Below, in pieces: positions 4,654 to 28,322 of a stretch of 64,000 bases of DNA. The DNA lies in contig OZ242008.1 in NCBI GenBank assembly GCA_965204735.1, positions 1,248,001 through 1,312,000 on the forward strand, in the 5' to 3' direction. Position 1 is the first letter of the stretch, and the number at the start of each line of letters is the position of its first letter. A model generated the notes under the pieces. It worked only from the letters and a program-made list of their open reading frames with translations. It searched no databases and was not told the DNA's origin. Position numbers and translations under genes: made by a program. Origin of the DNA: Longimicrobiales bacterium (GTDB lineage Bacteria; Gemmatimonadota; Gemmatimonadetes; Longimicrobiales; Gaopeijiaceae).

Positions 4654-4660
4654 CTAACAA

Positions 4661-5968: not shown

Positions 5969-6007
5969 TTCTCTCCTCGGTCGAAAGACGTAGTGGTCAT
6001 TGTGCTC

Positions 6008-7720: not shown

Positions 7721-7725
7721 GGGCT

Positions 7726-10700
7726 CTACCGCCGCCAAGCGGCCGGCGCGGGCACGCCGCGGCTCACCTGGACCTCCAGTCCCGGCTCTGGAAGCCCCCG
7801 CGCCCCGTCCGTCCCGGCTGGGCCGCGGACTCCCGAACCGGACCAGTCGCGCAGGATGCCGCGTACCCTGCCAGTGGCCGGGTCCCGCAGCAGTGCCGCC
7901 GCTGGGCCGGACTGCGCGTCCATGGCCACCGAGCCGTCTGGACCCGTCAGCACGATTCGCGACAGCGCGTCCGCCCAGCTCGACTCCGTCGGAAGCGCGA
8001 GCGCGAACGACTGTCGGCCGTCTCCGTCCGCCGTCTCGGCCATCTCGAAGCGCCGGGTGAAGAGCACGCGGCCGTCTTCGGCCTCGCCGGCGAGCTGCCA
8101 AGCACCGGTACCGTCCAGCGGGGTCGGCGGCGCTTCGACCACGAACGCCGGGTTCAGGAACGGGCGCCCGTCGGCGCCGGCACCGCCCCAGAGCAGAAGG
8201 GCGCGCACCGGCAGTGCGGCCCCGATTCCGGTTTCGTCCTGCAGGCGCCACCGCAACGCGTTTGCAAAGTGGTAGTCGCTGATTCCGCCCCAGTTGCAGT
8301 AACCCATCACGTCGCGAGCATTCGGAGGCACCAAGCTGCGGGAACGATGATCCCAGCCCCACGCACCACTGCGCCCTTTGGCGTGCGGATACCCAGGATC
8401 AGGGCCTCCTGCGCCTCCGCAGGGTGCATGCCATAGGTGCATGTTGTGTCCGAATTCGTGTGCAACGACCCCTCCGTCCGGTGTAGAAAACATGACTCGG
8501 CCGGGAACATACGCAACTCCACCCCCAACACCCCCCATGGTGCCCATGTAGTAGCCTGCTCCACCCTCCATGACCCGAATCGCTTCGGTCTCACCCAGCT
8601 GCCATCCCTTGGTAGAAGTCCAAACGGGCTCGTGAACGGTTACTCTCATGCGCCCCACGGGAAGCCAGCTGCGAGTCTCCTTGAAGAGTGGGGCCTCGGG
8701 CGAAAGACCCCGGGTCACGTTCAGAATCGACGAGTCCGGCACCGTCTCCCAAAGAAAAGGCACCACCGTCACGTCGAACGTCGGCATCTCGTACACGTCC
8801 AGCGTCGTCCGCCCTACCTCCGGGACACGTCGCGGGACGCCCAGCTGCGGGTCGAGCGCACCTTCCGGGTCCAACACCACCACGATCTCGACGCCCGGAC
8901 GCAACACTTCTCCCGGAACCGCGGCGTTCGTAGACAGGTCAAGGCTGCGTTCAGCCGCTTCGGTCTGCGCTGGTATCGCTCCAGTTCCCGGCGATAATGG
9001 AACGCTGTGCTTGGAACCGTCCTGCTGATAGAACGTCGCCACGCCAGATGGAACGCGCACACCTTCAGCATCTGGAGCCGCCACCAACACGCGCAGCAAC
9101 CCTGGCCTGCCCGCGACCAGCGGCACGGGAAAGTCCGGCGACTGGACCGTCTGCACGACGTACGCCGTGGCAGTCGCCAAGGCTGTTTCCGTCCGCGTCT
9201 CGCATATGCGAACGTACCGATTCCAGAACGACCTCATCTGCAACCGCGTGGCGAAATCGCCGCCAACACACAGCCTCGTGCCAGTCGCGCTGAGGGAGCT
9301 CAGTCGACGCCAGTTGGCTATTGGCAATAGTCCAACCAGGTCCGCATTGCCCGACAGGTACAGGTGCGTCAAGTTGGCCAAGCCGCCCAGCTCGCGAGGT
9401 ATCTCGCCCGTCAAGTCGTTGCCCGACAGGTACAGGTGCGTCAAGTTGGCCAAGCCGCCCAGCTCGCGAGGTATCTCGCCCGTCAAGTCGTTGCCCCCCA
9501 GGTGCAGCCAGTCCAAGTTGGCCAAGCCGCCCAGCTCGCGAGGTATCTCGCCCGTCAAGTCGTTGCCCGACAGGTACAGGTGCGTCAAGTTGGCCAAGCC
9601 GCCCAGCTCGCGAGGTATCTCGCCCGTCAAGTCGTTGCCCCCCAGGTGCAGCCAGTCCAAGTTGGCCAAGCCGCCCAGCTCGCGAGGTATCTCGCCCGTC
9701 AAGTCGTTGCTCCACAGGTGCAGCACCCTCAAGTTGGCCAAGCCGCCCAGCTCGCGAGGTATCTCGCCCGTCAAGTCGTTGCCCCACAGGAACAGCACCC
9801 TCAAGTTGGCCAAGCCGCCCAGCTCGCGAGGTATCTCGCCCGTCAAGTCGTTGCCCCCCAGGAACAGATCCCTCAAGTTGGCCAAGCCGCCCAGCTCGCG
9901 AGGTATCTCGCCCGTCAAGTCGTTGCCCCCCAGGTGCAGCCAGTCCAAGTTGGCCAAGCCGCCCAGCTCGCGAGGTATCTCGCCCGTCAAGTCGTTGCTC
10001 AACAGGTGCAGCTCCCTCAAGTTGGCCAAGCCGCCCAGCTCGCGAGGTATCTCGCCCGTCAAGTCGTTGCCCCACAGGTCCAGGCTTCTGACGCGACCAC
10101 TTGCGTCCGTTTCGACTCCGTGCCAAACGTCCAGCGGCACGTCGGTCAGCCAGTTGTCGCTCCTGCTCCAGTCTTGGCCGCCTGTCGCATAGAAGAATGT
10201 CTCGAGGATGTCGCGGTCCGTCAGCGGCGGGCACTCGGTGCCCGTGCCGGAATGCGAGCGGACTGATCGCAACCAGGCTCGGAATGCTGGATCGGCCGGT
10301 ATGCACACTTTCGTGCCCTCGTACGACAAAACCCGCAACGGCAACGCAGTCATTCCCGACGCAAGGCGACCGTTCAATCGGCCGTTGCCGCCGAGCCGCA
10401 ACTCCCGGAGTGCCCGAAGAGACGCCCAGTTTCCTGCGAGCACACCGGACAAGTCGTTAGCAGTCAAGTCAATGCCTACGACGCGGCCGGACAAGGAGTC
10501 CGTCTCTATACCGTACCAGTCAGCCAAGGGCCCCGGCTGAAGCCACCCACTGGATGATGCCCACTCGGAACCGCCAGTCGCGTGGTAGAATGAGCGAAGC
10601 GCCGCAGCCTCGGCCTCGTGGCAGAACGGCCCACGGCTTCGTTCAAGTCCTTGCACAAAGTCGATGAAGCTTCGCGTGCCAGGCGCACACAAGCCAGCAT

Positions 10701-14489: not shown

Positions 14490-14933
14490 ATGGACTTCCT
14501 CACCAGCGACGCATTCATAACCATCGTTTCCGTCGTCGGCTCCGTCGCGGGGCTTCTGCTGGCGCTGCGGGCCGACATCGGAAGCCGCATCGACCGGCTG
14601 GAGGAGCGCGCCAAGGAGAGGGACCAAGCCCTCGGACAGCGCATCGACCGGCTCGAGGATCGGACTCGGGCCGATCACTTGAAGCTCGTCGCGGAGATCA
14701 ACGAGCTGAAGACGGACATGGGCGCCCAAATCAACGAGCTGAAGACGGCCATGGCCACCCAAATCGCCGAGCTGAAGGCGGCCGTGAGCGCCCAGATCGC
14801 CAAGCTGACGACGGCCGTGAGCGTCGTCGACGCCAAGCTCGACGAGAGATCGGCGCCGCAGGGGCTCGTGGTCAAGGAACCCTCCGGGGACTACGCGGCG
14901 GACGACGAGCCGGAGGGCGGCCCGGAGCCGTGA
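14490..14933 (+). CDS. Small membrane-anchored coiled-coil protein with 11-aa repeats
   Basis: MDFLTSDAFITIVSVVGSVAGLLLAL, then RIDRLE twice and AQINELKT-type repeats. Confidence 0.75.
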   Translation: MDFLTSDAFITIVSVVGSVAGLLLALRADIGSRIDRLEERAKERDQALGQRIDRLEDRTRADHLKLVAEINELKTDMGAQINELKTAMATQIAELKAAVSAQIAKLTTAVSVVDAKLDERSAPQGLVVKEPSGDYAADDEPEGGPEP

Positions 14934-14987
14934 CGCATCCGTCGGGCCTTCCCAAGTGCGGGCCGTGCGACGTTCGCGGCTCGCGGC

Positions 14988-15842
14988 TCACACCAGATAC
15001 CCGCCGTCCACCGGCACCACTGCGCCGGTGACGTGGCGCGCCGCCTCCGAGCAGAGGAAGAGGATCACCGACGCCACGTCCTGGGGGTCGCCCAGGCGGC
15101 CGAGGACGCTGCGCTCCCGGGCCCGGTCCATGATCTCGGCGGGCACCCGCTCGGTGAGCTCGGTGGTGCGGATGTAGCCGGGCGCGACGGCGTTCACGTT
15201 GACGTTGGACGGGCCCAGCTCGGCGGCGGCGCTCCGGGTGAGGCCGAAGAGTCCCGCCTTCGAGGAGCAGTAGTTGGCCAGGCCGAACTCGCTGGAAAGT
15301 CCGTGGACCGACGACACGTTGACGATCTTGCCGAACTCCTGGGCGCGGAAGTGGGGCGCCGCGGCCCGGGTGAAGTAGAAGGCGCCCGACAAGTTGGTGT
15401 CGATCACGGTCCGCCACTCGTCGTCGTCCATCCGCCAGAGGGCGCTGTCCCGACCCACGCCGGCGTTGTTCACCAGGAAGTGGAGGCCGCCCAGCACGGC
15501 CCGGGCCTCGCCGACGAACTCGGTCGCCTCCGCCGGGTCCCGCACGTCGCCGGGCCGCGAGAAGACCTCGACGCCGCACTCGCGCAGCTCGCTCTCCACC
15601 TCGTCGGCCACCCCCCGGCTCGCCGACCCCCGGTCCAGGTAGTTGAAGGCGACGTGGGCGCCGGCCCGGGCGAAGGCGGTCGCCGTGGCGCGGCCGATCC
15701 CGCTCGATGCGCCCGTCACCAGCGCCACCCGCCCCCGCAGCGACGGGTCCGACGCCGCCGGCTCGGGCGCCGGACGGGGAACCGGCCCGGTCAGCGCGTC
15801 GGCCGCCCCCACGGCCTCCACGGCGTCGCCGCTCGTCCTCAC
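14988..15842 (-). CDS. Short-chain dehydrogenase/reductase (FabG-like)
   Basis: TGASSGIG, NNAG, YCSSK, NAVAPG, VDGG. Confidence 0.92.
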   Translation of the reverse strand: MRTSGDAVEAVGAADALTGPVPRPAPEPAASDPSLRGRVALVTGASSGIGRATATAFARAGAHVAFNYLDRGSASRGVADEVESELRECGVEVFSRPGDVRDPAEATEFVGEARAVLGGLHFLVNNAGVGRDSALWRMDDDEWRTVIDTNLSGAFYFTRAAAPHFRAQEFGKIVNVSSVHGLSSEFGLANYCSSKAGLFGLTRSAAAELGPSNVNVNAVAPGYIRTTELTERVPAEIMDRARERSVLGRLGDPQDVASVILFLCSEAARHVTGAVVPVDGGYLV

Positions 15843-16522
15843 CGGCCGCCGCCCGGCTTGGCGTGCTTGATCGACTTGGCCTCGACGAGGAACACCACGT
15901 CCTCCGCGATGTTGGTCGCCAAGTCTCCGATCCGCTCCAGGTTCTGGACCACCAGGATCATCTCCAGGCCCGGGCTGATGTAGCGGGGCTGCTCCAGCAT
16001 GTACGACACGACGATCCGGAAGGCGGAACGCCGCAAGTCGTCCACTCGCTCGTCCGCCGCCACGACGCGACGGGCGACGGCGACGTCCCGGTTCACCAGC
16101 GCGCCCAGCGCGTCGTCCAGCATCGCCAGCGCCTGGTCGCCCATCTCCCGCACCTCCAGGATGTCCGGCAGCGGAGGGTGAGATGCGATCCGCTTCGTCG
16201 CCTTGGCGATGTTCACCGCGTGGTCGCCGATCCGCTCGATGTCGTTGGACGCCTTCAAGGTGACGAACGCCTGCCGCAAGTCGCCCGCGACGGGTCTCTG
16301 AAGCGCCAGGAACTCCAGCACCCGCTCGTCGATCTCCACTTCCAGGGCGTCGATCCCGTCGTCGGAGCGCCTGACCTGCTTCGAGCGGGTCGGGTCGCGT
16401 TCCGCCAAGCCGGTCATCGCCAGCCGCACGAGCTCCTCCGCCCGTCCCGCCATCTCCAGCAGCATCTCGCGGAGGCGGTCCAGCTCGGCTTCGGCCCGGC
16501 TCCTGGGGGGCGGCTCGTTCAT
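15839..16522 (-). CDS. phoU: Phosphate signalling complex protein PhoU
   Basis: LALQRPVAGDLR, DIERIGDHAVNIA, NLERIGDLATNIAEDV. Confidence 0.96.
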   Translation of the reverse strand: MNEPPPRSRAEAELDRLREMLLEMAGRAEELVRLAMTGLAERDPTRSKQVRRSDDGIDALEVEIDERVLEFLALQRPVAGDLRQAFVTLKASNDIERIGDHAVNIAKATKRIASHPPLPDILEVREMGDQALAMLDDALGALVNRDVAVARRVVAADERVDDLRRSAFRIVVSYMLEQPRYISPGLEMILVVQNLERIGDLATNIAEDVVFLVEAKSIKHAKPGGGR

Positions 16523-16538
16523 GGCGGGGGTGGGCGGG

Positions 16539-17354
16539 TCATGCGGGTCTCCCGGTCAGGTAGGACTCGGTGCGCTCGTCCCGAGGGTTGGTGAAGAGGG
16601 TCTCGGTGAGGCCGTACTCGACCAGCTCGCCCCCGTCCAGGTACGCGGTCAGGTCGGAGAGGCGGGCGGCCTGCTGCAGGTCGTGGGTGGCGATGACCAC
16701 GGTGTAGGCGCCCTTGAGGGCGTGGACCAGGGCCTCGATCCGGGCCGTGGCCGCCGGGTCCAGCGCCGACGTGGGCTCGTCCATGAGAAGCACGCTGGGC
16801 TTGACCGCAAGCGTCCGGGCAATGCAGAGCCGCTGCTGCTGACCCGCCGAGAGCCCCAGCGCCGGGGCGTCCAGGTCGCCGGCGACCTCCGGCCACAGGC
16901 CCGCCGCCGAGAGGACTTCCTCGACCAAGGCGTGCAGGTCTCCGTCGAAGCCGCCGGCCCGGGGTCCGAAGGCCACGTTGTCGAAGACGGAAGCGGGGAA
17001 GGGGGTCGGCTGCTGAAGCACCATGCCGATCCTCCGGCGCACCGCCACGGGGTCCACGTGGGCGGCGTAGAGGTCGAGTCCCTCGAAGCGGACTGCGCCC
17101 GTGGTGCGCGCGCCCTGCACCAGTTCGTTCATGCGGTTGAAGCAACGGAGAAGAGTGGTCTTGCCGCAACCGGACGGGCCAATGACGGACACGATCCGGC
17201 CCGGAGGGACCTCCAGGGTGACGTTCGACAGCGCGGTCCGCCCGTCGAAGCTCACCGAGAGGCCGTCGGCGGAGAGGACGGGACCGGAAGCGGCGCCGGG
17301 GTCGCCGGGCGGCCGGACGGGGGCCTTGTCGGGGCCGGAAGCCTGGAGGGTCAC
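16539..17354 (-). CDS. pstB: Phosphate ABC transporter ATP-binding protein PstB
   Basis: GPSGCGKTTLLRCFNRMN, LSAGQQQRLCIAR, LLMDEPTSALDP, FTNPRDERTESYLTGR; GTGA coupling to pstA. Confidence 0.95.
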   Translation of the reverse strand: MTLQASGPDKAPVRPPGDPGAASGPVLSADGLSVSFDGRTALSNVTLEVPPGRIVSVIGPSGCGKTTLLRCFNRMNELVQGARTTGAVRFEGLDLYAAHVDPVAVRRRIGMVLQQPTPFPASVFDNVAFGPRAGGFDGDLHALVEEVLSAAGLWPEVAGDLDAPALGLSAGQQQRLCIARTLAVKPSVLLMDEPTSALDPAATARIEALVHALKGAYTVVIATHDLQQAARLSDLTAYLDGGELVEYGLTETLFTNPRDERTESYLTGRPA

Positions 17355-18193
17355 GGGCGCGCCGTCGGCATCCGCCGGCGCAGGGCCAGGACGGTCAGGT
17401 TGGCCGCCAGGAGGAGCAGCAGAAGGGCGATCGCGGCGCCGGCGGCCAGCGCGCCGAACTCGGGCTGGGAGCGGGCCGTCCAGTCGAAGATGCGGGTCGG
17501 CAGGGAGACGAGCGGATCGCCGGGCGCCGTGGGCGCGAAGGTGACGAAGGACGCGGCGCCGATCACCAGCAGCGGCGCCGCCTCGCCCACCGTGCGGGTG
17601 AAGGCGAGGCAGGCGCCGGCCGCCACCCCGGGCGCCGCCGCCGGGAGGACTTGGTGGCGCACGACCTGCCAGCGGGTCGCGCCCAGCCCGTACGCCGCGT
17701 GCCGAAGGCTCTCCGGAACGGATCGGATCGCGCCTTGCGAGGTGGCGACCACGGCCGGGAGGGCCAGCGTGGCCAGGGTGAGCCCGCCGGCCAAGATGCT
17801 CCGTCCCGCCCCCATCGCGTGAACGAAGACGGCGAGCCCCGCGACCCCGTACACCACCGACGGCACCGCCGCCATGCTTGCGGCCAGCGACCCGCCAAGG
17901 GCCGACCATCGGTTTCTGGGCGCGTACTCCTCCAGGTAGACGGCGGCGCCGACTCCCACGGGAAGCGCGAAGAGGACCGTGAGGAGGGCCAGCCAGAGCG
18001 TGCCCGCCAGCGCGGGGCCGATCCCGGCGCGGCTCGGGTCTCGAGAGGGCGGGGACGCGAAGAAGGCCGGGTCCAGCGCCTCCCAGCCGCGCGCCGCCAG
18101 GACGCCCGCCAGCAGCGCCAGGCCGGCGGCGGCGGTCCAGGCGCCCGCGCCGCACGCCGTCCCGGCCTTGCCGTGGCGACGGAAGAACTTCAC
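17351..18193 (-). CDS. pstA: Phosphate ABC transporter permease PstA
   Basis: AGIGPALAGT, GAAVYLEEY, VPSVVYG, AAYGLGATRWQ, RTVGEAAPL. Confidence 0.93.
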   Translation of the reverse strand: MKFFRRHGKAGTACGAGAWTAAAGLALLAGVLAARGWEALDPAFFASPPSRDPSRAGIGPALAGTLWLALLTVLFALPVGVGAAVYLEEYAPRNRWSALGGSLAASMAAVPSVVYGVAGLAVFVHAMGAGRSILAGGLTLATLALPAVVATSQGAIRSVPESLRHAAYGLGATRWQVVRHQVLPAAAPGVAAGACLAFTRTVGEAAPLLVIGAASFVTFAPTAPGDPLVSLPTRIFDWTARSQPEFGALAAGAAIALLLLLLAANLTVLALRRRMPTARP

Positions 18194-19242
18194 GGGTGCA
18201 GGGCCCCCAAGCGGGCGGCGGCTCCCGGGCCTGCGCCGAAGCCTCGACGGCGGCCGAAGCCTCGACGGCCGCGGGGGGACGGACCGGGCCGTCGGGAGAG
18301 GAGCGCCCTGCCCGCCGCATGGGTTCCGAAGGCGAGAAGGAAGAGGACCGCCGCGGCGGCGAAGACGGCCCGGTAGGCCAGCGTGCCCGGCGCGGCGTCG
18401 CCCATGTTCATCTGGGCGATGAAGGTGGTGAGGGTCCGGAGCCCTTCCAGGGGACTCCACGCCAGACGGGCCTGGTTGCCCGCGGCCATCGTCACGATCA
18501 TCGTCTCGCCGGCGCCCCGGGCCAGGGCGAGAACGACGGCCGCCGCGATCCCCCGGCCCGCGGCCGGCGCGACGACGCGGGCCAGGACCCGGCCCCGGCT
18601 CGCGCCCAGCGCCAGTCCCGCCTCGAGCAGCGAGCGGGGAACCGAGTCCAGCGCCTGCCGCGACACCACCGCCACCGTAGGCAGGATCATGAGCCCGACC
18701 ACCAGGCACGCGGCCAAGCCGTTGAAGGGCTCGACGGTGGGCCAGACGCGCCGGAGCGCGGGCGTGACGAACTCAAGGGCGAGGTAGCCCAGCACCACGG
18801 TGGGCACGCCGGACAGCAGAGTCACCGACGCGGACAGGAAGCGCTCCGTCCGAGCGCCGGCGTAGTAGGCAAGGTAGGCGGCGGTGGCCAGACCGGCGGG
18901 CGCGGCGAAGAGCGCGGCCCCGGCGGCGACCTGCGCCGTGGCGGCCAGCAGGGGGAGCACGCCGAAGCGAGGCTCCTCTGCGAACGGCGCCCACGAGCCT
19001 TCGGTCAGGAACCGCGCCAGAGGGACCTCGGCAAAGAACGACGCCGTCTGCCGGGCCAGCGCCCAGACGACCGTGGCGAAGGCCGCGGCCGCCACCAGGG
19101 CGCATGCGGCGAACGCCCACCGGGCCAGCCGCTCGCCGAGCGCGCGGGACGCCGTGGCCGCCCCCGAGAAGCCGTCGAGGTTGGCCCCGGGGCCGGACTT
19201 CGTCGGAGAGCCGGTCGGCGTCGAGGCGCCCGCGAGCCTCAC
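18190..19242 (-). CDS. pstC: Phosphate ABC transporter permease PstC
   Basis: FLTEGSWAP..FGVLPLL, GVPTVVLG, ARGAGETMIVTMAAG, TLTTFI; GTGA-coupled on both sides. Confidence 0.92.
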   Translation of the reverse strand: MRLAGASTPTGSPTKSGPGANLDGFSGAATASRALGERLARWAFAACALVAAAAFATVVWALARQTASFFAEVPLARFLTEGSWAPFAEEPRFGVLPLLAATAQVAAGAALFAAPAGLATAAYLAYYAGARTERFLSASVTLLSGVPTVVLGYLALEFVTPALRRVWPTVEPFNGLAACLVVGLMILPTVAVVSRQALDSVPRSLLEAGLALGASRGRVLARVVAPAAGRGIAAAVVLALARGAGETMIVTMAAGNQARLAWSPLEGLRTLTTFIAQMNMGDAAPGTLAYRAVFAAAAVLFLLAFGTHAAGRALLSRRPGPSPRGRRGFGRRRGFGAGPGAAARLGALHP

Positions 19243-21923
19243 CAAGCCGTCCGCTCCAGCAGAGCTTCGCTCCGGGCGTGCTCGCCGGCGGGGAGGGGGA
19301 CGTACCCGGCCTCTGCGGCGAGCGCCTGGCCCGCCGCGACGAAGAACGAAGCGAACTCGCGGACCGCCGGCCGCGCCAGGGCGGCTTGGCGGACGTAGAT
19401 GTAGAGGTCGCGCACCAGCGGACTGTAGCGACCGTCGGCAAGGGACTCGCGGGACGGGAGCACGCAGCCGAAGCCCGCGTCCACCGCCACGGCCTTGAGC
19501 GCCCCTCGGTTGGCCTGGTAGTGGGCGTAGCCGAAGTATCCCAGCGCCCACCGGTGCCCGGCCACGCCCCGAGCCACCAAGTGGTCGCTTTCGGTCTGAT
19601 GGTAGTCGGCGCGGCTGGCGCCCGTCCGGCCCGCCACCACCCTGGTGAAGAAGTCGAAGGTGCCCGAGTCGGGACCCGGACCGTAGAGGCGCACTTTCTC
19701 GGCGGGCAGGCCGGGACGCAGGTCGCGCCAAGTGGCCACGCGGCTCGACGGCGCCCAGACGCGCTCCAGCTCGTCCAGCGTCAGGCACTCCACGCCGTGG
19801 TTGCCCGGGTTGACCACCACCGTCAAGCCGTCCCGGGCGACGGGAAGCGCCAGGTAGCGGGCGTCGGTCCTCCGGCAGCGAGCTTCCTCCTCCTCCGTCA
19901 TGAGGCGCGAGGCGCCCGCCACGTCCACTTCGCCCTCGCAGAGCCGCCTGAAGCCGCCTCCCGAGCCCGAGAGGCTCACCGCCACGCGATGCTCGGGGCT
20001 GCGGCGCGCAAACTCCTCCGCCACCGCTTCCGCCAGCGGACCGAGAGTGCTCGACCCTCCGACGGCCACCGCTCGCCCAGGGTCGCCGCTCCCGCCGGGC
20101 GCGCACGCCAGGAGCAGAGCGACGGCCAGACCGGCGCCCGCGGCGACCCCGCGAGCCGCCGGGCGACCGGCTTCCTCGCCGCCCGCCGTTCCCTCCAGCG
20201 GCAAGGTGAAGCCGATCGTCGTGCCCGCGCCCAGCGCGCTCTGCGCAGAGACTTCGCCCCCCATGCTGGAGACCAGGTGTCGGACGATGGCCAGTCCCAG
20301 TCCCGTGCCGCCGCCCGGTCGGGAGCGGGCCGCGTCGATCCGATAGAAGCGCTCGAAGATGCGCGGCAGCGCGGACGCGGGGATGCCGGCCCCGTTGTCG
20401 CGCACGGCGATCCGCAGCCGTTCGTCCTCCTCGTCGATCTCCACGCGGACCCGGCCGCCCTTGTCGGGGACGTGCTTCATGGCGTTCTCGAAGAGGTTGC
20501 GAAGCACCTGATACACCGCCTGTTCGTCCCCCGACGCCACCCCGTCTCCCGAGACGCTGAACTTCACCCCGCGGGCCGCGGCTTCGTCCTCCATCTCCTC
20601 CCAGACGGACCACGCGACTTCGCCGACGAGCACCGGCGCGTGCTGGGGGCGCCAAGCGCCCGACTCGTACCGGGAAAGGTCCAGCAAGTCGTCCACCATG
20701 CGCTGCAGCCGCACGGTGTTGCGCCCGATGGACCGAAGGAACTGGCTGCGAAGCTCCGGGGGCACGTCTTCCTCCAAGACCGTCTCGGCCGCGACGCGAA
20801 TGACGGTCAGCGGCGTCTTCAGCTCGTGGGAAGCGTTGGCCACGAAGTCGGAGCGCACCTCCTCCAGTCGGCGAAGCTCCGTCACGTCCACCAGGACGGC
20901 CACGGACTCCCCCTCCGACCCCCGAGTGGTGCGCACGTCCAGCTTCCGCCCGCCCAGATCGATCTCCAGGCGGCCCTCGCGCCGGTCCACCGACTTCTCG
21001 AGCAAGTCGCGGAGGACCGGGTCCCGCACGACCGAGCCCACGGGGGCCAGCCTGGGCACGTCCGCTACGCCGAGCAGCTTCTTCGCCGCCGGGTTGATGC
21101 GCAGGATGCGGGCGTCGGCGGTGAGCGCCACCAGCCCCTCCGCCACCCGGTCCACCAGCCCCGCCAGCTCGTCCCGCTCCCGAGCGGCCCGCGCGGACTG
21201 CACGTCCAGCTGGGTTCGCGCCCGGTTCGCCGCCGAAGCCGTGCGGGCAAGCTCGGCCACGGGCGAGAGCGGCGCCCTGGGACCGGCAGGCCGCCCGGCG
21301 CCGACGCCCGAGAGCAGGCCGCCCACGGCGTTCAGCGACCGGACGACGCCTCCGAGGAACCAGTGCAGCGCCGCGATCGAGACGACGGCGGCGGCCAGCA
21401 CGGCCAGGGCCGCGTTGCGCGCCGCCCGCGCCGCAGCCTCCTCGACGGGCTCGGCCGGGGCGCCGAAGCGGACCACGACGGTCTCGCCGCGCCAGTACGC
21501 CCGGGCCGCGGCGAAGACGTAGGGACGCCCGTCCACCTCCCCCGCGCGCCGGGAGAACGTCACCGCCCGGGCGTCTCGAAGCGCCTCTTCCACTTCGGGG
21601 CGCTGCGTCCCGCCCGCGGCCTCCAGCGCTTCCGCGCCGTCGGCGAGCTGCGGATCCGCCACCAGCTTCATGTCGCCGTCGAAGACGCTGGTCCGGTACC
21701 GGGTCGTGGCGGCCAAGGCGCTGGCCACGCTGTCCAGGGCGAGGTCCTGGGACGCCCGCAGCCGTTCGGCCCCCAGCCGCACCGCGCGGCCCAGGTGCTC
21801 CCGGACCTCCTCCGTCAGGGCCCGCTCGGTGGTGGCGCGGGTCGCCGCCCAGGCCGCCGCCGCCGCGAGCACGGCCGCCCCGGCCGCTCCCGCCAGGGCG
21901 GCAGGCCGCAGCGCAACCCTCAC
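19239..21923 (-). CDS. phoR: PhoR-like sensor histidine kinase fused in frame to a C-terminal PstS phosphate-binding domain
   Basis: TM, periplasmic domain, TM, PAS, DFVANASHELKTPL, NLFENAMK, FERFYRID..GGTGLGLAIV; then AVALLLAC and PstS motifs GSSTLGP, GSGGGFRRLC, YGPGPDSGTFDFF, GYFGYAHY, YSPLVRDLYIYV. Confidence 0.9.
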   Translation of the reverse strand: MRVALRPAALAGAAGAAVLAAAAAWAATRATTERALTEEVREHLGRAVRLGAERLRASQDLALDSVASALAATTRYRTSVFDGDMKLVADPQLADGAEALEAAGGTQRPEVEEALRDARAVTFSRRAGEVDGRPYVFAAARAYWRGETVVVRFGAPAEPVEEAAARAARNAALAVLAAAVVSIAALHWFLGGVVRSLNAVGGLLSGVGAGRPAGPRAPLSPVAELARTASAANRARTQLDVQSARAARERDELAGLVDRVAEGLVALTADARILRINPAAKKLLGVADVPRLAPVGSVVRDPVLRDLLEKSVDRREGRLEIDLGGRKLDVRTTRGSEGESVAVLVDVTELRRLEEVRSDFVANASHELKTPLTVIRVAAETVLEEDVPPELRSQFLRSIGRNTVRLQRMVDDLLDLSRYESGAWRPQHAPVLVGEVAWSVWEEMEDEAAARGVKFSVSGDGVASGDEQAVYQVLRNLFENAMKHVPDKGGRVRVEIDEEDERLRIAVRDNGAGIPASALPRIFERFYRIDAARSRPGGGTGLGLAIVRHLVSSMGGEVSAQSALGAGTTIGFTLPLEGTAGGEEAGRPAARGVAAGAGLAVALLLACAPGGSGDPGRAVAVGGSSTLGPLAEAVAEEFARRSPEHRVAVSLSGSGGGFRRLCEGEVDVAGASRLMTEEEEARCRRTDARYLALPVARDGLTVVVNPGNHGVECLTLDELERVWAPSSRVATWRDLRPGLPAEKVRLYGPGPDSGTFDFFTRVVAGRTGASRADYHQTESDHLVARGVAGHRWALGYFGYAHYQANRGALKAVAVDAGFGCVLPSRESLADGRYSPLVRDLYIYVRQAALARPAVREFASFFVAAGQALAAEAGYVPLPAGEHARSEALLERTAW

Positions 21924-21956
21924 GCGCGCCTTCCCCGCTCGGCGGCCACGGCCCGG

Positions 21957-22706
21957 CTACCGTCCTCGGAACCGATACCCGAACCCTCGGACCGTCTCGA
22001 TCCAGCCGCCCGCCTCGCCCAGCTTGGCGCGCAGGCGGCGAACGTGCATGTCCACGGTTCGGGTTCCGCGCCTGCCGCCCAGCCGGTGCTTCGCGTCCTG
22101 GTCCCAGGCTTCGCCCAGGAGCTCTCGGCGGCTCTGGGTCCGCCCCCGGCGCTCCATCAGCGTCTTCAGCAGCCGGAACTCGGTCGGCGTGAGCTGGACG
22201 CGCTTTCCATCCACCGTGACGGCGTTCGACCCCAGGTCGACCCTGAGAGGACCCCTGGAGAGGACGCGGGCGCCGGCCGCGGGCGCCACCCCCTCGCCCT
22301 GGGCCCGTCGCAGGATCGCCTCGATCCGGAGCATCAGCTCTCGGGAGCTGAAGGGCTTGGAAAGGTAGTCGTCCGCTCCCAGCTCCAGTCCCTCGATCCG
22401 GTCGTCGCGGTCGTCCTTGGCGGTGAGCATCAGCACGGGCAAGCCCTTGGTCGCGGGCTCTTCCCGGATCGCCCGGAGCACGTCGTCGCCCGACGCGCCG
22501 GGAAGCATCCGGTCGAGCACCACGAAGTCGGGGATCTCGCGGCGGAGCGAGAAGAGCCCCTCGACGCCGTCGGCCGCCGTCTCCACCCGATACCCGGCCT
22601 TGGCGAGCTGGTAGGCGACGAGACCGGCGATCTCCGCGTCGTCCTCGACCACCAGCACTCGGGACCGGGGCTTGGGCACGCGGGCGCGGGCGATGCCGCC
22701 GCTCAC
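21957..22706 (-). CDS. phoB: PhoB-like OmpR-family response regulator
   Basis: VLVVEDD, LDRMLPG, LTAK, GADDY.SKPF, LTPTEFRLL, TRTVDMHVRRLR, ETVRGFGY; heads the pho/pst operon. Confidence 0.92.
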   Translation of the reverse strand: MSGGIARARVPKPRSRVLVVEDDAEIAGLVAYQLAKAGYRVETAADGVEGLFSLRREIPDFVVLDRMLPGASGDDVLRAIREEPATKGLPVLMLTAKDDRDDRIEGLELGADDYLSKPFSSRELMLRIEAILRRAQGEGVAPAAGARVLSRGPLRVDLGSNAVTVDGKRVQLTPTEFRLLKTLMERRGRTQSRRELLGEAWDQDAKHRLGGRRGTRTVDMHVRRLRAKLGEAGGWIETVRGFGYRFRGR

Positions 22707-23989
22707 TTGGCCGGCTTCCCGCTCGCGGCCCCGCTCGCCTTCGCCACGGCCAGCACTTCCGCCTCCGACAGTGTGTGGTCCGCCGACTTGGCCTTCTGCA
22801 GGACGCGGGCGGCCAGATCCGGGTGGCTCGGGTCGTACCCCCGCTTCGCGAGCCAGTACTTGACGTTGGAAAGCCCCGACATCGGGCCGATCTCGATCTG
22901 CTGACGACGGCCCACCATCGAGGCGGGCACGCTGGAGTACACCCGGTCCGCGAGCCAGCGGGCCCCCTTCGCTTCGGCCTTGACGATGGCGGCCGCGTGG
23001 ACGCCGGTGGCGGTGCGGAAGGCGTCGGCGCCCAGGACGGGGTAGTTGGGCGGAAGAGGCACGCCGCACTCCTGCGCGACAAGCTCGCAGTACTCGGCCA
23101 GGCGGGTCAGGTCGGCGTCGTGAACGCCGGCCATGGCCAAGTTCACCAGCAGCAGGTCCATCTCGACGTTGCCCACCCGCTCGCCGATTCCCATCGCCGT
23201 GCCATGGATCCGGTCGGCGCCGGCGTCGATCGCGGCCAGGGCGCCGGCCAAGCCCAGTCCCCGGTCTCGGTGGCCGTGCCAGTCGAGCTTCACGTTGGCG
23301 CCCGAGGGATCGACGATCTCGCGGCGGACGAAGCGGATCAGCGCTCGAACGCCCGACGGCGTGGCGTGGCCCACGGTGTCCGAGAGGCAGATCCGCCGGG
23401 CGCCCCACTCGATGGCGTGTCCGTAGAGCGCCTTCAGCGTCTCGGGGTCGGCCCGGGTGGTGTCCTCGGTGACGAACATGACCGGCAGCCCCTCCTTCAC
23501 GCAGAACTCCACCGACTCCTCGGCCGTCCGCAGCATCGTGTCCAGCGACCAGTCCTCGGCGTAGAGGCGGATCGGGGAGCTGCCGATGAACACGCACACC
23601 TCCAGGCGAACGCCCGTCTTCTGGGAGATGCGGGCGGCGGGCTCCACGTCGGCCAAGACGGTGCGTGCGGCGCAGTTGGGCGCCACCGCCAGTCGCGAGT
23701 CGCGGATCTCCTCGCAGAGGCGCGTCACGTCGTTCACGGCCCGGGGGCCCGCGCCGGGAAGCCCCACGTCGGCCGCGTGTATGCCGAGCTCGGCCATGAT
23801 GTGGAGCAGGCGGACCTTGGCCTCGATGGGAGGGTCGGTCACCGAGGGCGACTGGAGGCCGTCGCGCAGCGTCTCGTCGTCCAGCTCCACGTGGCGGCCC
23901 CACGACAGCGTGTCGAACTCGGCGACGTTCCAGTCGTGGATCAGCCCTTGGTGCTCGAGCCCCTCGGGCTCCGCTTCGCCGTGCTTCAT
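22703..23989 (-). CDS. LeuA-family (2-isopropylmalate/homocitrate synthase-like) enzyme without regulatory domain
   Basis: DETLRDGLQ, DTVGHATP, WHGHRDRG, GIGERVGN. Confidence 0.88.
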   Translation of the reverse strand: MKHGEAEPEGLEHQGLIHDWNVAEFDTLSWGRHVELDDETLRDGLQSPSVTDPPIEAKVRLLHIMAELGIHAADVGLPGAGPRAVNDVTRLCEEIRDSRLAVAPNCAARTVLADVEPAARISQKTGVRLEVCVFIGSSPIRLYAEDWSLDTMLRTAEESVEFCVKEGLPVMFVTEDTTRADPETLKALYGHAIEWGARRICLSDTVGHATPSGVRALIRFVRREIVDPSGANVKLDWHGHRDRGLGLAGALAAIDAGADRIHGTAMGIGERVGNVEMDLLLVNLAMAGVHDADLTRLAEYCELVAQECGVPLPPNYPVLGADAFRTATGVHAAAIVKAEAKGARWLADRVYSSVPASMVGRRQQIEIGPMSGLSNVKYWLAKRGYDPSHPDLAARVLQKAKSADHTLSEAEVLAVAKASGAASGKPAK

Positions 23990-24034
23990 CTCGCCTCCGT
24001 CGGTGGCTGGTCCCGTCCCTACAGATTGGTCCTT

Positions 24035-25039
24035 CTACCGGGTCGTGGAAAGCACCTCCGAGTGGGGGGCCGCGTGAAGGGTCCCGCGAAAGCCCCGCAC
24101 CCGTGCCCCTTCGCCCACCACCGAGTCGCGCAGGCGGCTCCCTTCCACGACCGCCTCGGCGCCGACGATCGAGTCGTCCAGGTCGGAGCCCGCGACCCGG
24201 GCGCCCGCCTCCACCGTGACGTTGGCCCCGATCCGCGAACCGGTCACCACCGCGCCCGCCTCGATCCTCGCCACGGGCGACACCTCCGAGTCCGCCACCG
24301 ACGCGCCCTCCTGCGCGCCCCCTCGGCAACGGCGCAGCAGGTGGCCGTTGGTGGCCAGCAGCGTCTCGGGCTTGCCCGCGTCGTGCCATCCGTCCACGGG
24401 GGCCGTGGCCAGCTTCGCGCCCTGGTCCACCATGTACTGGAACGCGTCGGTCAGGTAGCGCTCGCCGGAGGGACCGGAAGGCGAGGCCGCGACGTGGTCG
24501 ATTCCCTCGAAGAGCAGGGCGTGGTCGCGGACGTAGTACAGCCCGACGTTGGCCAGCCGGGAGACGGGCTCCCGGGGCTTCTCCACGATCCGCGCCAGGT
24601 CCCCCGCCTCGTCGGCGACGACGACGCCGTAGCGCCGCCAGTCCTCCACCTCCGCGACCCAGATCGCCCCCGCCTTCTCCGCCGGCAGCGTCCGGATCGC
24701 TCCCCACTCCACTTCGAAGACGGCGTCCGCCAGGACGATCAGCAGCTCCTCGTCGGCCCAGGAGCGGGCAAGGGCCACGGCGCCGGCGGTCCCGTCCTGC
24801 ACTTCCTGGACCAGGTAGCGGGGACGCAGGTCCGGGTGGCGGCGGGCCACGTGGGACCGGATCGCGTTCTGAAGGTGGCCCACGATCAGCGCCACTTCGG
24901 CGACGCCGATCTTCCGCAGGTCGTCCAGCAGGTAGTCGAGCACGGGCTTGCCCGCGACCCGGAGAAGGGGCTTGGGCACGACGTGGGTGTGGGGCCGGAG
25001 GCGGGTGCCCTTCCCGGCCAAGGGGATGACGGCTTTCAT
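24035..25039 (-). CDS. Sugar-phosphate nucleotidyltransferase with C-terminal hexapeptide repeats
   Basis: MKAVIPLAGKGTRLRPHT..PKPLL, VEKP, WHDAGKPETLL. Confidence 0.92.
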   Translation of the reverse strand: MKAVIPLAGKGTRLRPHTHVVPKPLLRVAGKPVLDYLLDDLRKIGVAEVALIVGHLQNAIRSHVARRHPDLRPRYLVQEVQDGTAGAVALARSWADEELLIVLADAVFEVEWGAIRTLPAEKAGAIWVAEVEDWRRYGVVVADEAGDLARIVEKPREPVSRLANVGLYYVRDHALLFEGIDHVAASPSGPSGERYLTDAFQYMVDQGAKLATAPVDGWHDAGKPETLLATNGHLLRRCRGGAQEGASVADSEVSPVARIEAGAVVTGSRIGANVTVEAGARVAGSDLDDSIVGAEAVVEGSRLRDSVVGEGARVRGFRGTLHAAPHSEVLSTTR

Positions 25040-25285
25040 CGGCGGGCGAACCTTCGAGCGTGGCGGGAGAGGGCGACGACGGCCAGCGGCGCGGCGACGC
25101 CTGCGACGGGACGGAGCGTGAGCGCTCGACCCAAAGGCCAGCGGTCGACCCGAAGGCCGCGGGCGGTTGACCCAAGGCCACGGGCGTGGACAGCTTAAGT
25201 TGGGGAAGCAGTCCGGGCGGCCCCGTTGAAGATCGGCCGCTTGCCGAAAAGGTCCAGGACCTGGAAGGAGGAGCCGGCACGTCGG

Positions 25286-26710
25286 ATGGGAGTGGCGAAG
25301 GTGCTTTTCATTCGGCGCGCTCGGACCTGCCCCGGTGCGCGGGACCCCGAGATGAGGGGGCGCACCTATGCGATTCCGTTCGTTGCAGTGTGGAATGCGG
25401 CGCTGTCCCTGGCGGACGGGGGGCTGAAGGGATGGGAGATCGTGGGTTCGGACGACTTGGCCGGGGTGATCGAAGTCGACGCGACGAGCAGGGCGCTTTC
25501 CTTGCCGGCCAGGATCGTCGTCTCCGTCGGCCTGGACGCCGACGCCCAGACCCGAGTGGACCTGGAGGCGGAGGGGCGCCACATGGGAGGCGACCTGGGC
25601 GTCAACGTTCGACGGATCAAGCGCTTCGTGCGCGCGCTGGACGAGCTGCTGAGCGCTCGACCTGGACAGACTCCGCGCGCGGTCCTCGCCGCCCCTGCGG
25701 AACCGACCCGCAGGGAGTCGGCCGTCCTTGCGCCAACCCTGGCGGCGGCTCTTCTCCTGTTGCCTGCGGGCTGCTACCCCGGCGAGGACGCCGGCGGCCC
25801 GGCCGACCGGCGCGAGGGAGACGGCGACGCCGCTGTCGCACCCGTCATCGAGTCCGGCGAGACCTACCTGCGCACCGTCCTCTTCATGGACACGTCCCGC
25901 GACACCTCCATGTTCGTGCAGTGGGAGTGGGAAGCGCGCCTCGACTCGGGGGGCGTCCGGCGAACGATCCGGGGATGGCTCGGTCGAGTTTGGAGCACGC
26001 CGGCGCTCGGCGACGACGTTCGCGACGGCGGAAGCTGGGACCACTTCGCCACGGACGCCTGGACTTCCCGCCACGTCGGGCGGGAGTGGTGGCGCATCCG
26101 GCCCAGGGGCTGGGCGCGCCTCGTCATGGGCCCCGGCAACGTCCTTCAGGAAGTCTACTACCGCCAGCCGGACGAGGACCGGTTCCTTTCCGTCGCCTTG
26201 GGCGAGGCCGTCGCCGAGTGGCGCGGCCGGCGGGGAGAGCGCTATCAGGTTCTCCGGGGCAAGGCCGTGCTCGCGGACATGGAGATGGACGGGCTGGCGC
26301 TGGACGTGTCCGTTTCCCGATCCGCCAGTGCCGAAGGGCCGGCGGAGTGGGCACTTCTGGCCGGCGCGGACAGCCTCGTCGTGCTGCTCGTCGATCCCGA
26401 GGGTCCCGGTCCCCACCGCGCCTGGGCCCTTCGCGGGCTTCAGGAGATGTCCTGGTCGGAGGTGAGCGCCGAGTGGACGGAGGCGACGGCGTTGGACGGG
26501 AACCGGCGGATGGTTCCCGTGAAGTGGCAGCTCGCTTCGGACGACGGCGAGCTTCGGGGACACCTGGAGTCCACCAAGTCGTCGATCTTGTCGTTGGCGG
26601 GCGCCGGCCTCCTCTCGACCCTCGTGAGCGTCCAGGAAGTAGCCGGCGAAGTGACGGTCGAAGGGGCGCAGATCCCGGTCCGGGGCTTCCTGCGGCACGC
26701 CCAGCGATGA
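25286..26710 (+). CDS. DUF1499-like N-terminal domain fused through an internal lipobox to a large extracytoplasmic domain
   Basis: RBS AGGAGG; RGRTY..RVDL..GDLGVNVRRIKRF (DUF1499-like), then LAAALLLLPAGC. Confidence 0.65.
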   Translation: MGVAKVLFIRRARTCPGARDPEMRGRTYAIPFVAVWNAALSLADGGLKGWEIVGSDDLAGVIEVDATSRALSLPARIVVSVGLDADAQTRVDLEAEGRHMGGDLGVNVRRIKRFVRALDELLSARPGQTPRAVLAAPAEPTRRESAVLAPTLAAALLLLPAGCYPGEDAGGPADRREGDGDAAVAPVIESGETYLRTVLFMDTSRDTSMFVQWEWEARLDSGGVRRTIRGWLGRVWSTPALGDDVRDGGSWDHFATDAWTSRHVGREWWRIRPRGWARLVMGPGNVLQEVYYRQPDEDRFLSVALGEAVAEWRGRRGERYQVLRGKAVLADMEMDGLALDVSVSRSASAEGPAEWALLAGADSLVVLLVDPEGPGPHRAWALRGLQEMSWSEVSAEWTEATALDGNRRMVPVKWQLASDDGELRGHLESTKSSILSLAGAGLLSTLVSVQEVAGEVTVEGAQIPVRGFLRHAQR

Positions 26711-26765
26711 CCCCTCTTCCGGCGGCACGCCCGGCGGCGGCGGCCTCCCGTCGGACGGCGGTCCG

Positions 26766-28322
26766 GTGAGCGAGGAGCTGCTGCGGGGGATCGTCACCGT
26801 GGTCGGCGGCGCGGTTGCTGGCGGGCTCACCAACACGGTGGCGATCTGGATGCTCTTCCACCCGACGCGCCCTCCAGCCGTGCTGGGCCGGTCGATCCGG
26901 GCGCTCCAGGGGGCGATCCCGAAGAACCAGCCGCGACTGGCCAAGGCGATCGGCAATACCGTGGGGCGCCGTCTCCTGACCCAAGACGACCTTGCCCGCG
27001 TCTTCGGCGAACCCGCCTTCCGATCGGCCTTCGACCAGAAGCTGGACGACTTTCTCCGCCAGTTGCTGGAGGTGGAACGGGGCTCGTTGCGCGAGATCCT
27101 GGGTCCCGAGGGCGCGGCCAAGGCCGACCGGATCGCCGGCAAGGCGCTCGACCATGCGCTGCCCCGGCTGCGCGAGTACGTGGCGTCGGCCGCCTTCGAG
27201 TCCGCCGTCCAGGCCAAGGCGGGGGCTCTGGCCGCGTTCGTGGCCGACGCCTCGGCGGGCGACGTGCTGACCAGCGACCGACTGACCCGGATCGAGGACG
27301 CCGCGGCCGCGTGGATGGAACGGGCGGTCTCCGGCGACGGCTTTCGGGACGTCGTGGACGACTACGTCCGCCAAGGCGCCGGGAAGCTGCTGGCGTCGGA
27401 GGCGACCTTGGGGGAAGTGCTGCCGCCCAGCGTGCGGGACGCGCTGGCCAGGGCGGTGGCGGGGTACCTGCCGGCGGTCGTCCAGCAGCTGGGAAAGATG
27501 CTGGAGAGCCCGGCTTCCAGAACGCGCTTCGAGACGACCGTGCGCGAGATGCTGGGGCGGTTCAAGGACGACTTGAAGCTGCACCAGAAGGTGATGGCCA
27601 AGCTGGTCTTGAAGGACGACATGGTGGGGCGCGCGCTCGACGCCCTGGAGGCCGACGGCGTGAACCGGATCGCCGAGCTCCTTCGGGAGCGCGCCGTTCA
27701 GAGGGACACGGCGAAGTGGATTCGCGAAGCCTTGGACCGGCCCCTGAACCAGATCCTGGGCGACCCGGAGGACCCGTCGCTGGCCGGCTCCCTGGACACG
27801 GCGGTGGAGTGGATCGTGGACTTGGCCCGGGCGCCCGCGACCCGGGCGTTCGTCGCCGAGAGGCTCGCGGCTTTCCTGGAACGCGCTTCGGAGCGCACTT
27901 GGGGCGAACTCGCCGGCGGCATCTCGCCGCAACGCGCGTCGGCGCTGGTGGTGGAGGCGGCCCGCAGCGAGATGGCGGACTCGCTCTGCCGGGAAGGTGC
28001 CCAGCGACTGGCGGCCTTCGCGCTCGATCGACCCATCGGCCGACCCGCCCGCCTTCTCCCCGGCAACACGGTCGAGCGCGTCCGGCAGGCTGCCGGCGAC
28101 CCCATGTGGAGCTGGATGCAGGGCCAGGTCCCGAAGGTCGTGGCCAAGGTGGACGTGGCCAAGCAGGTCGAGGACAAGGTCAGGGAGTTCCCCGTCAAGG
28201 ACCTGGAGACCCTGGTGCGCCGAGTGACGGAGCGGGAGCTGAAGATGATCGTGTGGCTGGGCTACGGCCTAGGCGCGTTCGTCGGCGCATTCCTGGTCGG
28301 CGTCAACTGGCTTTGGGGCTGA
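26766..28322 (+). CDS. DUF445 family membrane protein
   Basis: GGLTNTVAIWMLFHP..QGAIPK..RLAKAIG; C-terminal RELKMIVWLGYGLG. Confidence 0.88.
   Translation: MSEELLRGIVTVVGGAVAGGLTNTVAIWMLFHPTRPPAVLGRSIRALQGAIPKNQPRLAKAIGNTVGRRLLTQDDLARVFGEPAFRSAFDQKLDDFLRQLLEVERGSLREILGPEGAAKADRIAGKALDHALPRLREYVASAAFESAVQAKAGALAAFVADASAGDVLTSDRLTRIEDAAAAWMERAVSGDGFRDVVDDYVRQGAGKLLASEATLGEVLPPSVRDALARAVAGYLPAVVQQLGKMLESPASRTRFETTVREMLGRFKDDLKLHQKVMAKLVLKDDMVGRALDALEADGVNRIAELLRERAVQRDTAKWIREALDRPLNQILGDPEDPSLAGSLDTAVEWIVDLARAPATRAFVAERLAAFLERASERTWGELAGGISPQRASALVVEAARSEMADSLCREGAQRLAAFALDRPIGRPARLLPGNTVERVRQAAGDPMWSWMQGQVPKVVAKVDVAKQVEDKVREFPVKDLETLVRRVTERELKMIVWLGYGLGAFVGAFLVGVNWLWG

Follow-up and report, generated by a model that had tools for sequence, protein, structure and literature searches.

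The closest described counterpart of the locus reported here is the PhoR-PhoB/PstSCAB-PhoU phosphate system of Escherichia coli, as presented in the available parts of three publications (PMC4423584, PMC5775613, PMC12976172). A 64,000-nucleotide stretch of the genome of a Longimicrobiales bacterium (GenBank assembly GCA_965204735.1, contig OZ242008.1, positions 1,248,001 to 1,312,000; the whole stretch is called the window below) exhibits all seven components of that system in one operon, sharing with E. coli the kinase motifs, the PstS fold, the Arg/Glu pairs of PstC and PstA and a single phoU. It differs in that the sensor kinase PhoR and the phosphate-binding protein PstS are encoded in one reading frame, that no Pho-box-like site is present, that PstB carries the signature LSAGQ, that the genome has a second pst operon, and that the fused PhoR possesses a periplasmic domain, absent from E. 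coli PhoR. The C-terminal part of the fused protein also resembles the PstS lipoproteins of the TIGR02136 type: it passes the cut-off of that family model (224.3 bits against 206.6) and, by alignment, keeps eight of the nine phosphate ligand positions given for C. perfringens PBP-1 in the accessible text of PMC5381212. Unlike those lipoproteins, it carries its signal peptide within the chain, 607 residues after the N-terminus, and without a start codon of its own.

The phoR::pstS fusion and its repeated origin

The phoR::pstS fusion is real. As the first-pass annotation of the window had claimed, a single 894-aa reading frame runs from 21923 to 19239 without an internal stop. Pfam places HisKA (357-422), HATPase_c (465-577) and PBP_like_2 (615-863) in this order along the protein, and its hydrophobicity peaks at residues ~3-28, 163-197 and 588-613. 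The following features were identified.

19239..21923, minus strand: fused phoR::pstS open reading frame (ORF), 894 aa, with a GTG start and a TGA stop that overlaps the pstC start (GTGA)
21840..21905, minus strand: first transmembrane helix (TM1) of PhoR, aa ~7-28, from hydropathy and a helix in the AlphaFold model
21429..21839, minus strand: PhoR periplasmic domain, aa ~29-165, without Pfam match; ratio of nonsynonymous to synonymous substitution rates (dN/dS) 0.25-0.40
21348..21422, minus strand: second transmembrane helix (TM2) of PhoR, aa ~168-192, from hydropathy and the model
20886..21155, minus strand: PAS-like domain, aa ~257-346, from the AlphaFold strand pattern, preceded by a low-confidence HAMP-like segment
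20658..20855, minus strand: HisKA/DHp domain, aa 357-422, from Pfam; His366 and Thr370 identical throughout the 22 aligned fused proteins
20193..20531, minus strand: HATPase_c domain, aa 465-577, from Pfam; N, G1, F and G2 box residues invariant
20151..20192, minus strand: unconserved linker, aa 578-591, ending in the basic n-region RPAAR
20103..20150, minus strand: internal lipoprotein signal, aa 592-606, with the lipobox Cys607 (20103-20105), a predicted Lgt/LspA site
19335..20081, minus strand: PstS domain, aa 615-863, Pfam PBP_like_2; closest solved structure 4JWO; four invariant Cys

The kinase part stays below the curated PhoR-type cut-offs (281 bits against 400 for PnpS NF046044, 253 against 334.2 for TIGR02966), although these are still its best-scoring models. 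We name it PhoR because of the gene order, the kinase being encoded together with phoB, pstC, pstA, pstB, phoU and the fused pstS, and as such it would control PhoB in response to phosphate. Its cytoplasmic part resembles VicK (fold match 4I5S). The complete PhoR described in the first-pass annotation (TM, periplasmic domain, TM, PAS, HisKA, HATPase) holds for HisKA and HATPase; Pfam finds no PAS domain in this protein, and what points to one are the AlphaFold strands at 257-346 and PAS_8 matches in 6 of 23 fused clusters (see below). The helix and strand pattern of the model suggests that the periplasmic domain may be a Cache/PDC-like sensor. The hydrophobic stretch preceding PstS, previously described as a third transmembrane segment, is present, but it forms a short signal-peptide-like helix of ~15 residues (592-606 in the AlphaFold model). 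It ends in the lipobox LLAC, the Cys of which is at residue 607 and not at an N-terminus. Codon reading found, as claimed, no in-frame ATG or GTG from the HATPase end to this Cys. The sole in-frame TTG in the HATPase-end region encodes Leu574, inside the last HATPase strand, and no purine-rich ribosome site precedes it.

An assembly error or a private stop-loss has a negligible probability. Such artefacts do exist: the database proteins P0034 and P0215, both discarded, are false fusions reading off-frame into pstS with its Met retained. At least half of the sampled words are carried by 13 sequencing runs from five studies, one of them possibly the source of the assembly, and runs from the four other studies, one each, were aligned across the junction. 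Single contigs from two of these studies (X3, X7) cross 19000-22200 with no gap and with 15 and 21 substitutions, respectively; contigs from the two further studies are gap-free over 19948-20214 and 20112-20510. No stop and no indel is present at the junction (20080-20230), where the two listed substitutions are silent (20142) or change Ala to Asp (20170). All four genomes of the genus are fused in frame, with 65-82% identity and with different linkers; together with the contigs of the other studies this excludes a stop-loss confined to one genome whose relatives all have separate genes. The host genome is a single contig of 4.14 Mb with 69% GC, 98% complete. Runs containing the stretch include sponge and marine metagenomes, and the host is probably a sponge-associated bacterium. 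The close unfused homologues are Gemmatimonadota by name.

A search for proteins combining HisKA, HATPase and the PstS-type binding domain, as proposed in the first-pass annotation, returned 23 clusters (at 90% identity) among 8000 scored candidates, of which 22 are intact fusions after removal of P0034. In the top 150 representatives at 50% identity, the junction is spanned only by P0007, P0034 and P0035, the last being a distant fusion (~40% identity, nine member sequences) known from protein records alone. When the fused alignment was run against metagenome and genome contigs, no fused locus turned up among at least 160 matches listed, mostly distant kinases; pstS lies within 1.5 kb downstream in five of these loci. 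The databases also contain PstS fusions of other kinds: in P0036 PstS is joined to a permease, and in P0244 it forms the C-terminal domain of a Ser/Thr protein kinase.

Within the family, 151 genomes were searched; 51 possess this PstS type at E <1e-45 and, with three others, 54 were classified by their phoR-pstS junction. Defining as spaced a junction with at least 145 nt from the phoR stop to the lipobox Cys, we find 28 spaced, 18 tight and four fused junctions, and four genomes without phoR in the DNA examined. The tight class comprises 12 ATGA or GTGA overlaps, one TGATG and five others. The sister genus (g62) gave matches in 47 of 53 genomes, of which 45 were examined, one match lying at a contig end and one being left out; four of the 44 classifiable genomes are fused and 40 are unfused. 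This brings the genome-verified fusions to eight. The unpublished genome G025 underlies none of the claims made here. A quick PhoR tree of 54 genome-verified rows, from which 11 database proteins and one long-branch genome were dropped, exhibits five changes of the fused state, four of them forced by strong branches, and a single clade of the eight verified fusions is rejected (approximately unbiased test, p-AU 1.7e-5). A quick tree including the database proteins gives six changes. Change counts give no direction; we read the changes as gains of the fusion because the outgroups and 40 of the 44 sister genomes are unfused. The unfused P0037, which has no genomic context, nests in the genus clade on a long branch and is possibly a reversal or marks a second origin within that clade.

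The junctions suggest a path from a spaced pstS with Pho-box-like repeats, through an ATGA or GTGA overlap without repeats, to the in-frame fusion. GTTAC repeats with an 11-base period occur in 27 of the 28 spaced junctions. This layout is that of the PHO box described for Streptomyces in the accessible part of PMC7866108, and PhoB probably binds these repeats. None of the 44 junctions of the sister genus reaches 9 of 10 matches to the repeat; five of them are long enough to count as spaced, yet lack it. In two genomes of another family of the same order, a gene of ~400 codons, porin-like and by its look of the outer membrane, lies between phoR and pstS.

The internal lipobox and the fate of the fused chain

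All 22 intact fused clusters retain the lipobox Cys, preceded by a hydrophobic stretch and one or more Lys or Arg, and the Cys is found in all eight fused genomes. The distance from the HATPase domain to this Cys ranges from 25 to 126 residues across the same clusters, and the linkers share no sequence. LLAC is among the common lipoboxes of 67 ordinary lipoprotein candidates in the host genome, in which both lgt and lspA were found; of LolA there is only a partial match. The four cysteines of PstS are invariant in 25 of 25 fused rows, which would fit disulfides formed outside the cytoplasm.

Among 1733 coding-like ORFs of the host genome (G000), a screen for internal lipoboxes that have no ATG or GTG close by returned five candidates, one of them phoR::pstS itself. 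Three are false: an ordinary lipoprotein, an off-frame read-through and an MFS helix. The remaining one is a second internal-lipobox fusion, unrelated to the first.

G000:C1:3280-7344, minus strand: MacB/FtsX permease::CrtC/Lipocalin_9 fusion, 1354 residues, with RR, a hydrophobic stretch and the lipobox LAAC (Cys919)

This gene pair occurs in 5 of 21 genomes searched. It is fused in three of the four genomes of the genus (G000, G002, G003) and split, with a TGATG overlap, in both other genera having it (G014, G066). The architecture is present in 30 clusters; the lipobox is found in 23 of the 23 close ones, and several of the seven distant ones exhibit, by eye, an Ala-X-Ala signal peptidase I site instead. 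That two unrelated fusions keep a processing site points to processing rather than to a special phosphate device. Also seen were large lipoproteins that combine Ig-like domains and leucine-rich repeats with a metallopeptidase motif at the C-terminus (L300:2-3670, minus strand; L303, ~4650-8150, plus strand).

With a probability of roughly 60%, judged from these sequence features, the internal signal directs export of the precursor, to which Lgt adds a lipid and which LspA cuts into PhoR and lipo-PstS. This is supported by the retention of the lipobox in 22 of 22 clusters while the linker varies, by the presence of lgt and lspA, and by the second internal-lipobox fusion. The first-pass annotation had offered two readings, a polyprotein processed by Lgt and LspA and a one-chain direct sensor; the former gains support, and the latter finds no positive evidence. 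One gene would give one precursor, in which PhoR is inserted by TM1 and TM2, its kinase domains folding in the cytoplasm, and the former signal peptide of PstS, now internal, would direct the PstS domain outward through Sec. Lgt would attach diacylglycerol to Cys607 and LspA would cleave just before it. Two products in 1:1 ratio would result, a PhoR that is ordinary but for a short relic tail at its C-terminus and a PstS anchored by its lipid in the ordinary manner, and the signal could then take the usual route from PstS through PstCAB and PhoU to PhoR and PhoB. We propose that overlapping stop/start junctions give rise to the fusion repeatedly, since its effect is reversed by the lipoprotein pathway.

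Several observations speak against cleavage or against a role for the fusion. The retained Cys would equally fit lipidation without cleavage. No lnt was found with TIGR00546 or PF20154 in the 98%-complete genome, and the host lipoproteins may stay diacylated. In-frame ATG, GTG or TTG codons precede the hydrophobic stretch in five of the eight fused genomes, at unrelated positions. With 40 of 44 sister-genus genomes unfused, the fusion is not required and may be neutral.

The chain might stay whole, lipidated or not, the third helix tethering PstS to PhoR, so as to keep it near PstCA and the kinase or to let it contact the periplasmic domain of PhoR directly. Four or more independent origins might point to selection for such linkage; the topology is workable, with basic residues inside and PstS outside; and a sensor-only complex would be in keeping with the degenerate PstB found in the sister genus, where 14 of 45 sequences keep the H-loop His and 0 of 45 the first Gly of LSGGQ. 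We nevertheless consider a tether unlikely, since the hydrophobic stretch of ~15 residues is signal-peptide-like, the cleavage box is kept in every case, and the linker is unconstrained in both length and sequence. The AlphaFold model, too, exhibits no confident arrangement of the kinase and PstS halves (pTM 0.37, linker pLDDT <50). In geometric terms, the ~16 residues from the catalytic domain to the helix appear short for a kinase of the VicK type, described as a rod of nearly 150 Å in the available text of PMC3582566.

PstS could also be translated additionally from an internal non-ATG start, with the long fusion as a tolerated by-product. Candidate codons are a TTG at -33 codons in the host genome, a GTG at -19 in G200 and G181, ATG/GTG in G177, and TTG and GTG in G002, but their positions are not conserved, no ribosome-site-like sequence precedes the TTG of the host, and three fused genomes (G001, G003, G195) have no ATG, GTG or TTG there at all and would be left unexplained. 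As PhoR lacks a stop, the long product would be made and handled anyway, and we regard this explanation as improbable. Still less credible is a decaying fused PstS, carried as a passenger while the PstS of the second pst operon does all the binding. The dN/dS of the fused PstS (0.24-0.30) does exceed that of the second PstS (0.14-0.16), and the first motif drifts from GSST to VSAS or VSGS in some copies; these dN/dS values are, however, far below 1, no fused copy contains a stop, and all 25 fused rows share Ser624, Arg673, Ser753, Gly754, Thr755 and the four Cys, with Ser672 present in 24 of them.

If the precursor is cut, as we favour, Lgt and LspA act naturally on signals that lie hundreds of residues from the N-terminus of a membrane protein, and lipoprotein predictors limited to N-termini would overlook proteins of this kind. 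Fusing genes across the membrane would then come at little cost, which would explain the repeated origin observed here. If it is uncut, a kinase is physically tied to its binding protein, which would be stranger still.

The fused operon and the second pst operon

The genes accompanying phoR::pstS, and the second pst operon outside the window, are as follows.

22703..23989, minus strand: upstream HMGL-like (isopropylmalate-synthase-like) gene, coupled to phoB
21957..22706, minus strand: phoB-like response regulator, its GTG start overlapping the stop of the upstream gene
18190..19242, minus strand: pstC; Arg242/Glu246 (E. coli Arg237/Glu241) kept; of the other conserved charged residues, many are changed
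17351..18193, minus strand: pstA; Arg200/Glu204 (E. coli Arg220/Glu224) kept
16539..17354, minus strand: pstB; Walker A and B, Q-loop and H-loop kept; signature LSAGQ, not LSGGQ
15839..16522, minus strand: phoU, the only one found in the genome
G000:C1 ~2900078-2904392, minus strand: second pst operon, with a stand-alone pstS, pstC, pstA and two pstB, without phoU or phoB

An SDR-like gene is also among the operon neighbours, and the genes are mostly joined by GTGA overlaps. A seven-codon frame, MTRPPPP (16519-16542, minus strand), overlaps the pstB stop with its ATG and the phoU ATG with its stop; this may reflect translational coupling or chance. The absence of a separate pstS, claimed in the first-pass annotation, is correct for the fused operon and incorrect for the genome, as the second pst operon has one. 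One PstB of that operon carries the signature LSLEEQ.

The phosphate path of the fused operon is largely kept. The eight retained ligand positions of PstS are S624, S625, T626, S654, S672, S753, G754 and T755, equivalent to S11, T12, S13, S41, S59, S129, G130 and T131 of PBP-1; the position of PBP-1 Arg125 is occupied by Pro, likewise in 27 of 27 spaced relatives. The Arg/Glu pairs of PstC and PstA, which hold phosphate in the E. coli structure according to the accessible part of PMC12976172, are kept in all four fused genomes of the genus. Many other conserved positions of these two proteins are changed, and their dN/dS is 0.18-0.35, against 0.05-0.14 in the second operon. The PstB signature is LSAGQ in 4 of 4 genus genomes and LSGGQ in 10 of 10 spaced relatives; the D loop is also kept. 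In the PstB of the sister genus, the Q-loop Gln is present in 34 of 45 sequences, and all 45 retain the Walker A Lys and the Walker B Asp-Glu. E. coli PstB mutants unable to transport still set the signalling state, according to the available portion of PMC5775613. Their behaviour makes a sensing unit with weak transport plausible, as might apply to this genus.

A Pho-box matrix built from the spaced junctions (training median 25.5 bits) gives 14.4 bits ~150 bases upstream of the second pstS, where the site has the form GTTAC-N6-GTGAC; 16 genomic sites score this high. The matching positions in G003 and G002 give 15.9 and 17.4 bits, respectively. By the same matrix no Pho-box-like site is found in the fused operon, where the best score is 2.6 bits. 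A sigma-70 scan of 14600-27500 found no promoter, a weak negative at 69% GC. The two best Pho-box-like sites of the genome are at G000:C1 296810 (plus strand) and 3633355 (minus strand); the former overlaps the start region of an opposite-strand gene, by its look a Tat-exported metallophosphoesterase. Of the 22 genomes with a tight or fused junction, 17 were found to have this second pstS, against 5 of the 28 spaced ones, though kin among these genomes are not independent.

With its site lost in lineages mostly possessing a second pst operon, the fused operon would be a steadily expressed sensing unit, and the second operon would provide inducible uptake; the fused operon may thus serve mainly for sensing. 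The full proposal is that Lgt-then-LspA-cut polyproteins exist at two or more loci and that the phoR::pstS operon forms a dedicated, steadily expressed sensing complex, with kinase and binding protein in 1:1 ratio, apart from the inducible uptake operon. We advance it tentatively, at somewhat short of even odds. The division of labour is called into question by the PstB of the genus, which keeps all catalytic residues; with no second pstS found in the 92%-complete genome G001, this implies that the fused operon may still import phosphate. The site before the second pstS scores well below the training median, and the contrast of 17 of 22 against 5 of 28 is overstated by kinship. The clade nevertheless offers a natural series for the open question of how PstSCAB signals to PhoR. 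It would separate sensing from transport, because the Pho-box-like site is lost, the phosphate path and PhoU are kept, and PstB is decaying, with the H-loop His left in only 14 of 45 sister genomes.

Relation to other described systems

Several pst systems in one genome are likewise known from Mycobacterium tuberculosis, a member of a different phylum, where loss of pstA1 leaves RegX3 constitutively active, so that one system carries the signal (PMC5513712, available text). The accessible parts of the reports on Pst/SenX3-RegX3 (PMC5513712, PMC7866108) mention no kinase-PstS fusion. The available portion of a survey of the phylum refers to pstSCAB and PhoR-PhoB and to no fusion (PMC10581226). 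Our literature search, whose scope left out most subscription journals and the supplements in which such a protein could be tabulated, returned no report of a PhoR-PstS fusion of this kind. The parts are textbook; their arrangement is apparently unreported.

The pairing of a solute-binding fold with a kinase recalls BvgS and EvgS, whose solute-binding domain lies at the N-terminus and leads straight into the transmembrane helix. In the fused protein the binding domain is C-terminal to the HATPase domain, behind a lipobox, and the protein is not a kinase of that type. To our knowledge, polyprotein processing of the kind proposed here has rarely been described in bacteria. FbcH of Bradyrhizobium japonicum, on which our search found no paper, is the cytochrome b-c1 precursor, made of two fused neighbours and cut at an internal signal peptide by signal peptidase I; it is likewise a natural polyprotein with a relic signal peptide, but without lipidation and outside signalling. 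A 1985 work by Hayashi et al. (PMID 2985611) reports, by its title, that internalized prolipoprotein signal sequences undergo modification and processing in E. coli and B. subtilis. Those are said to have been laboratory constructs, whereas the arrangement described here is natural, conserved, recurrent and placed behind a membrane kinase. There is a fair chance that this system demonstrates natural polyproteins cut at a lipobox.

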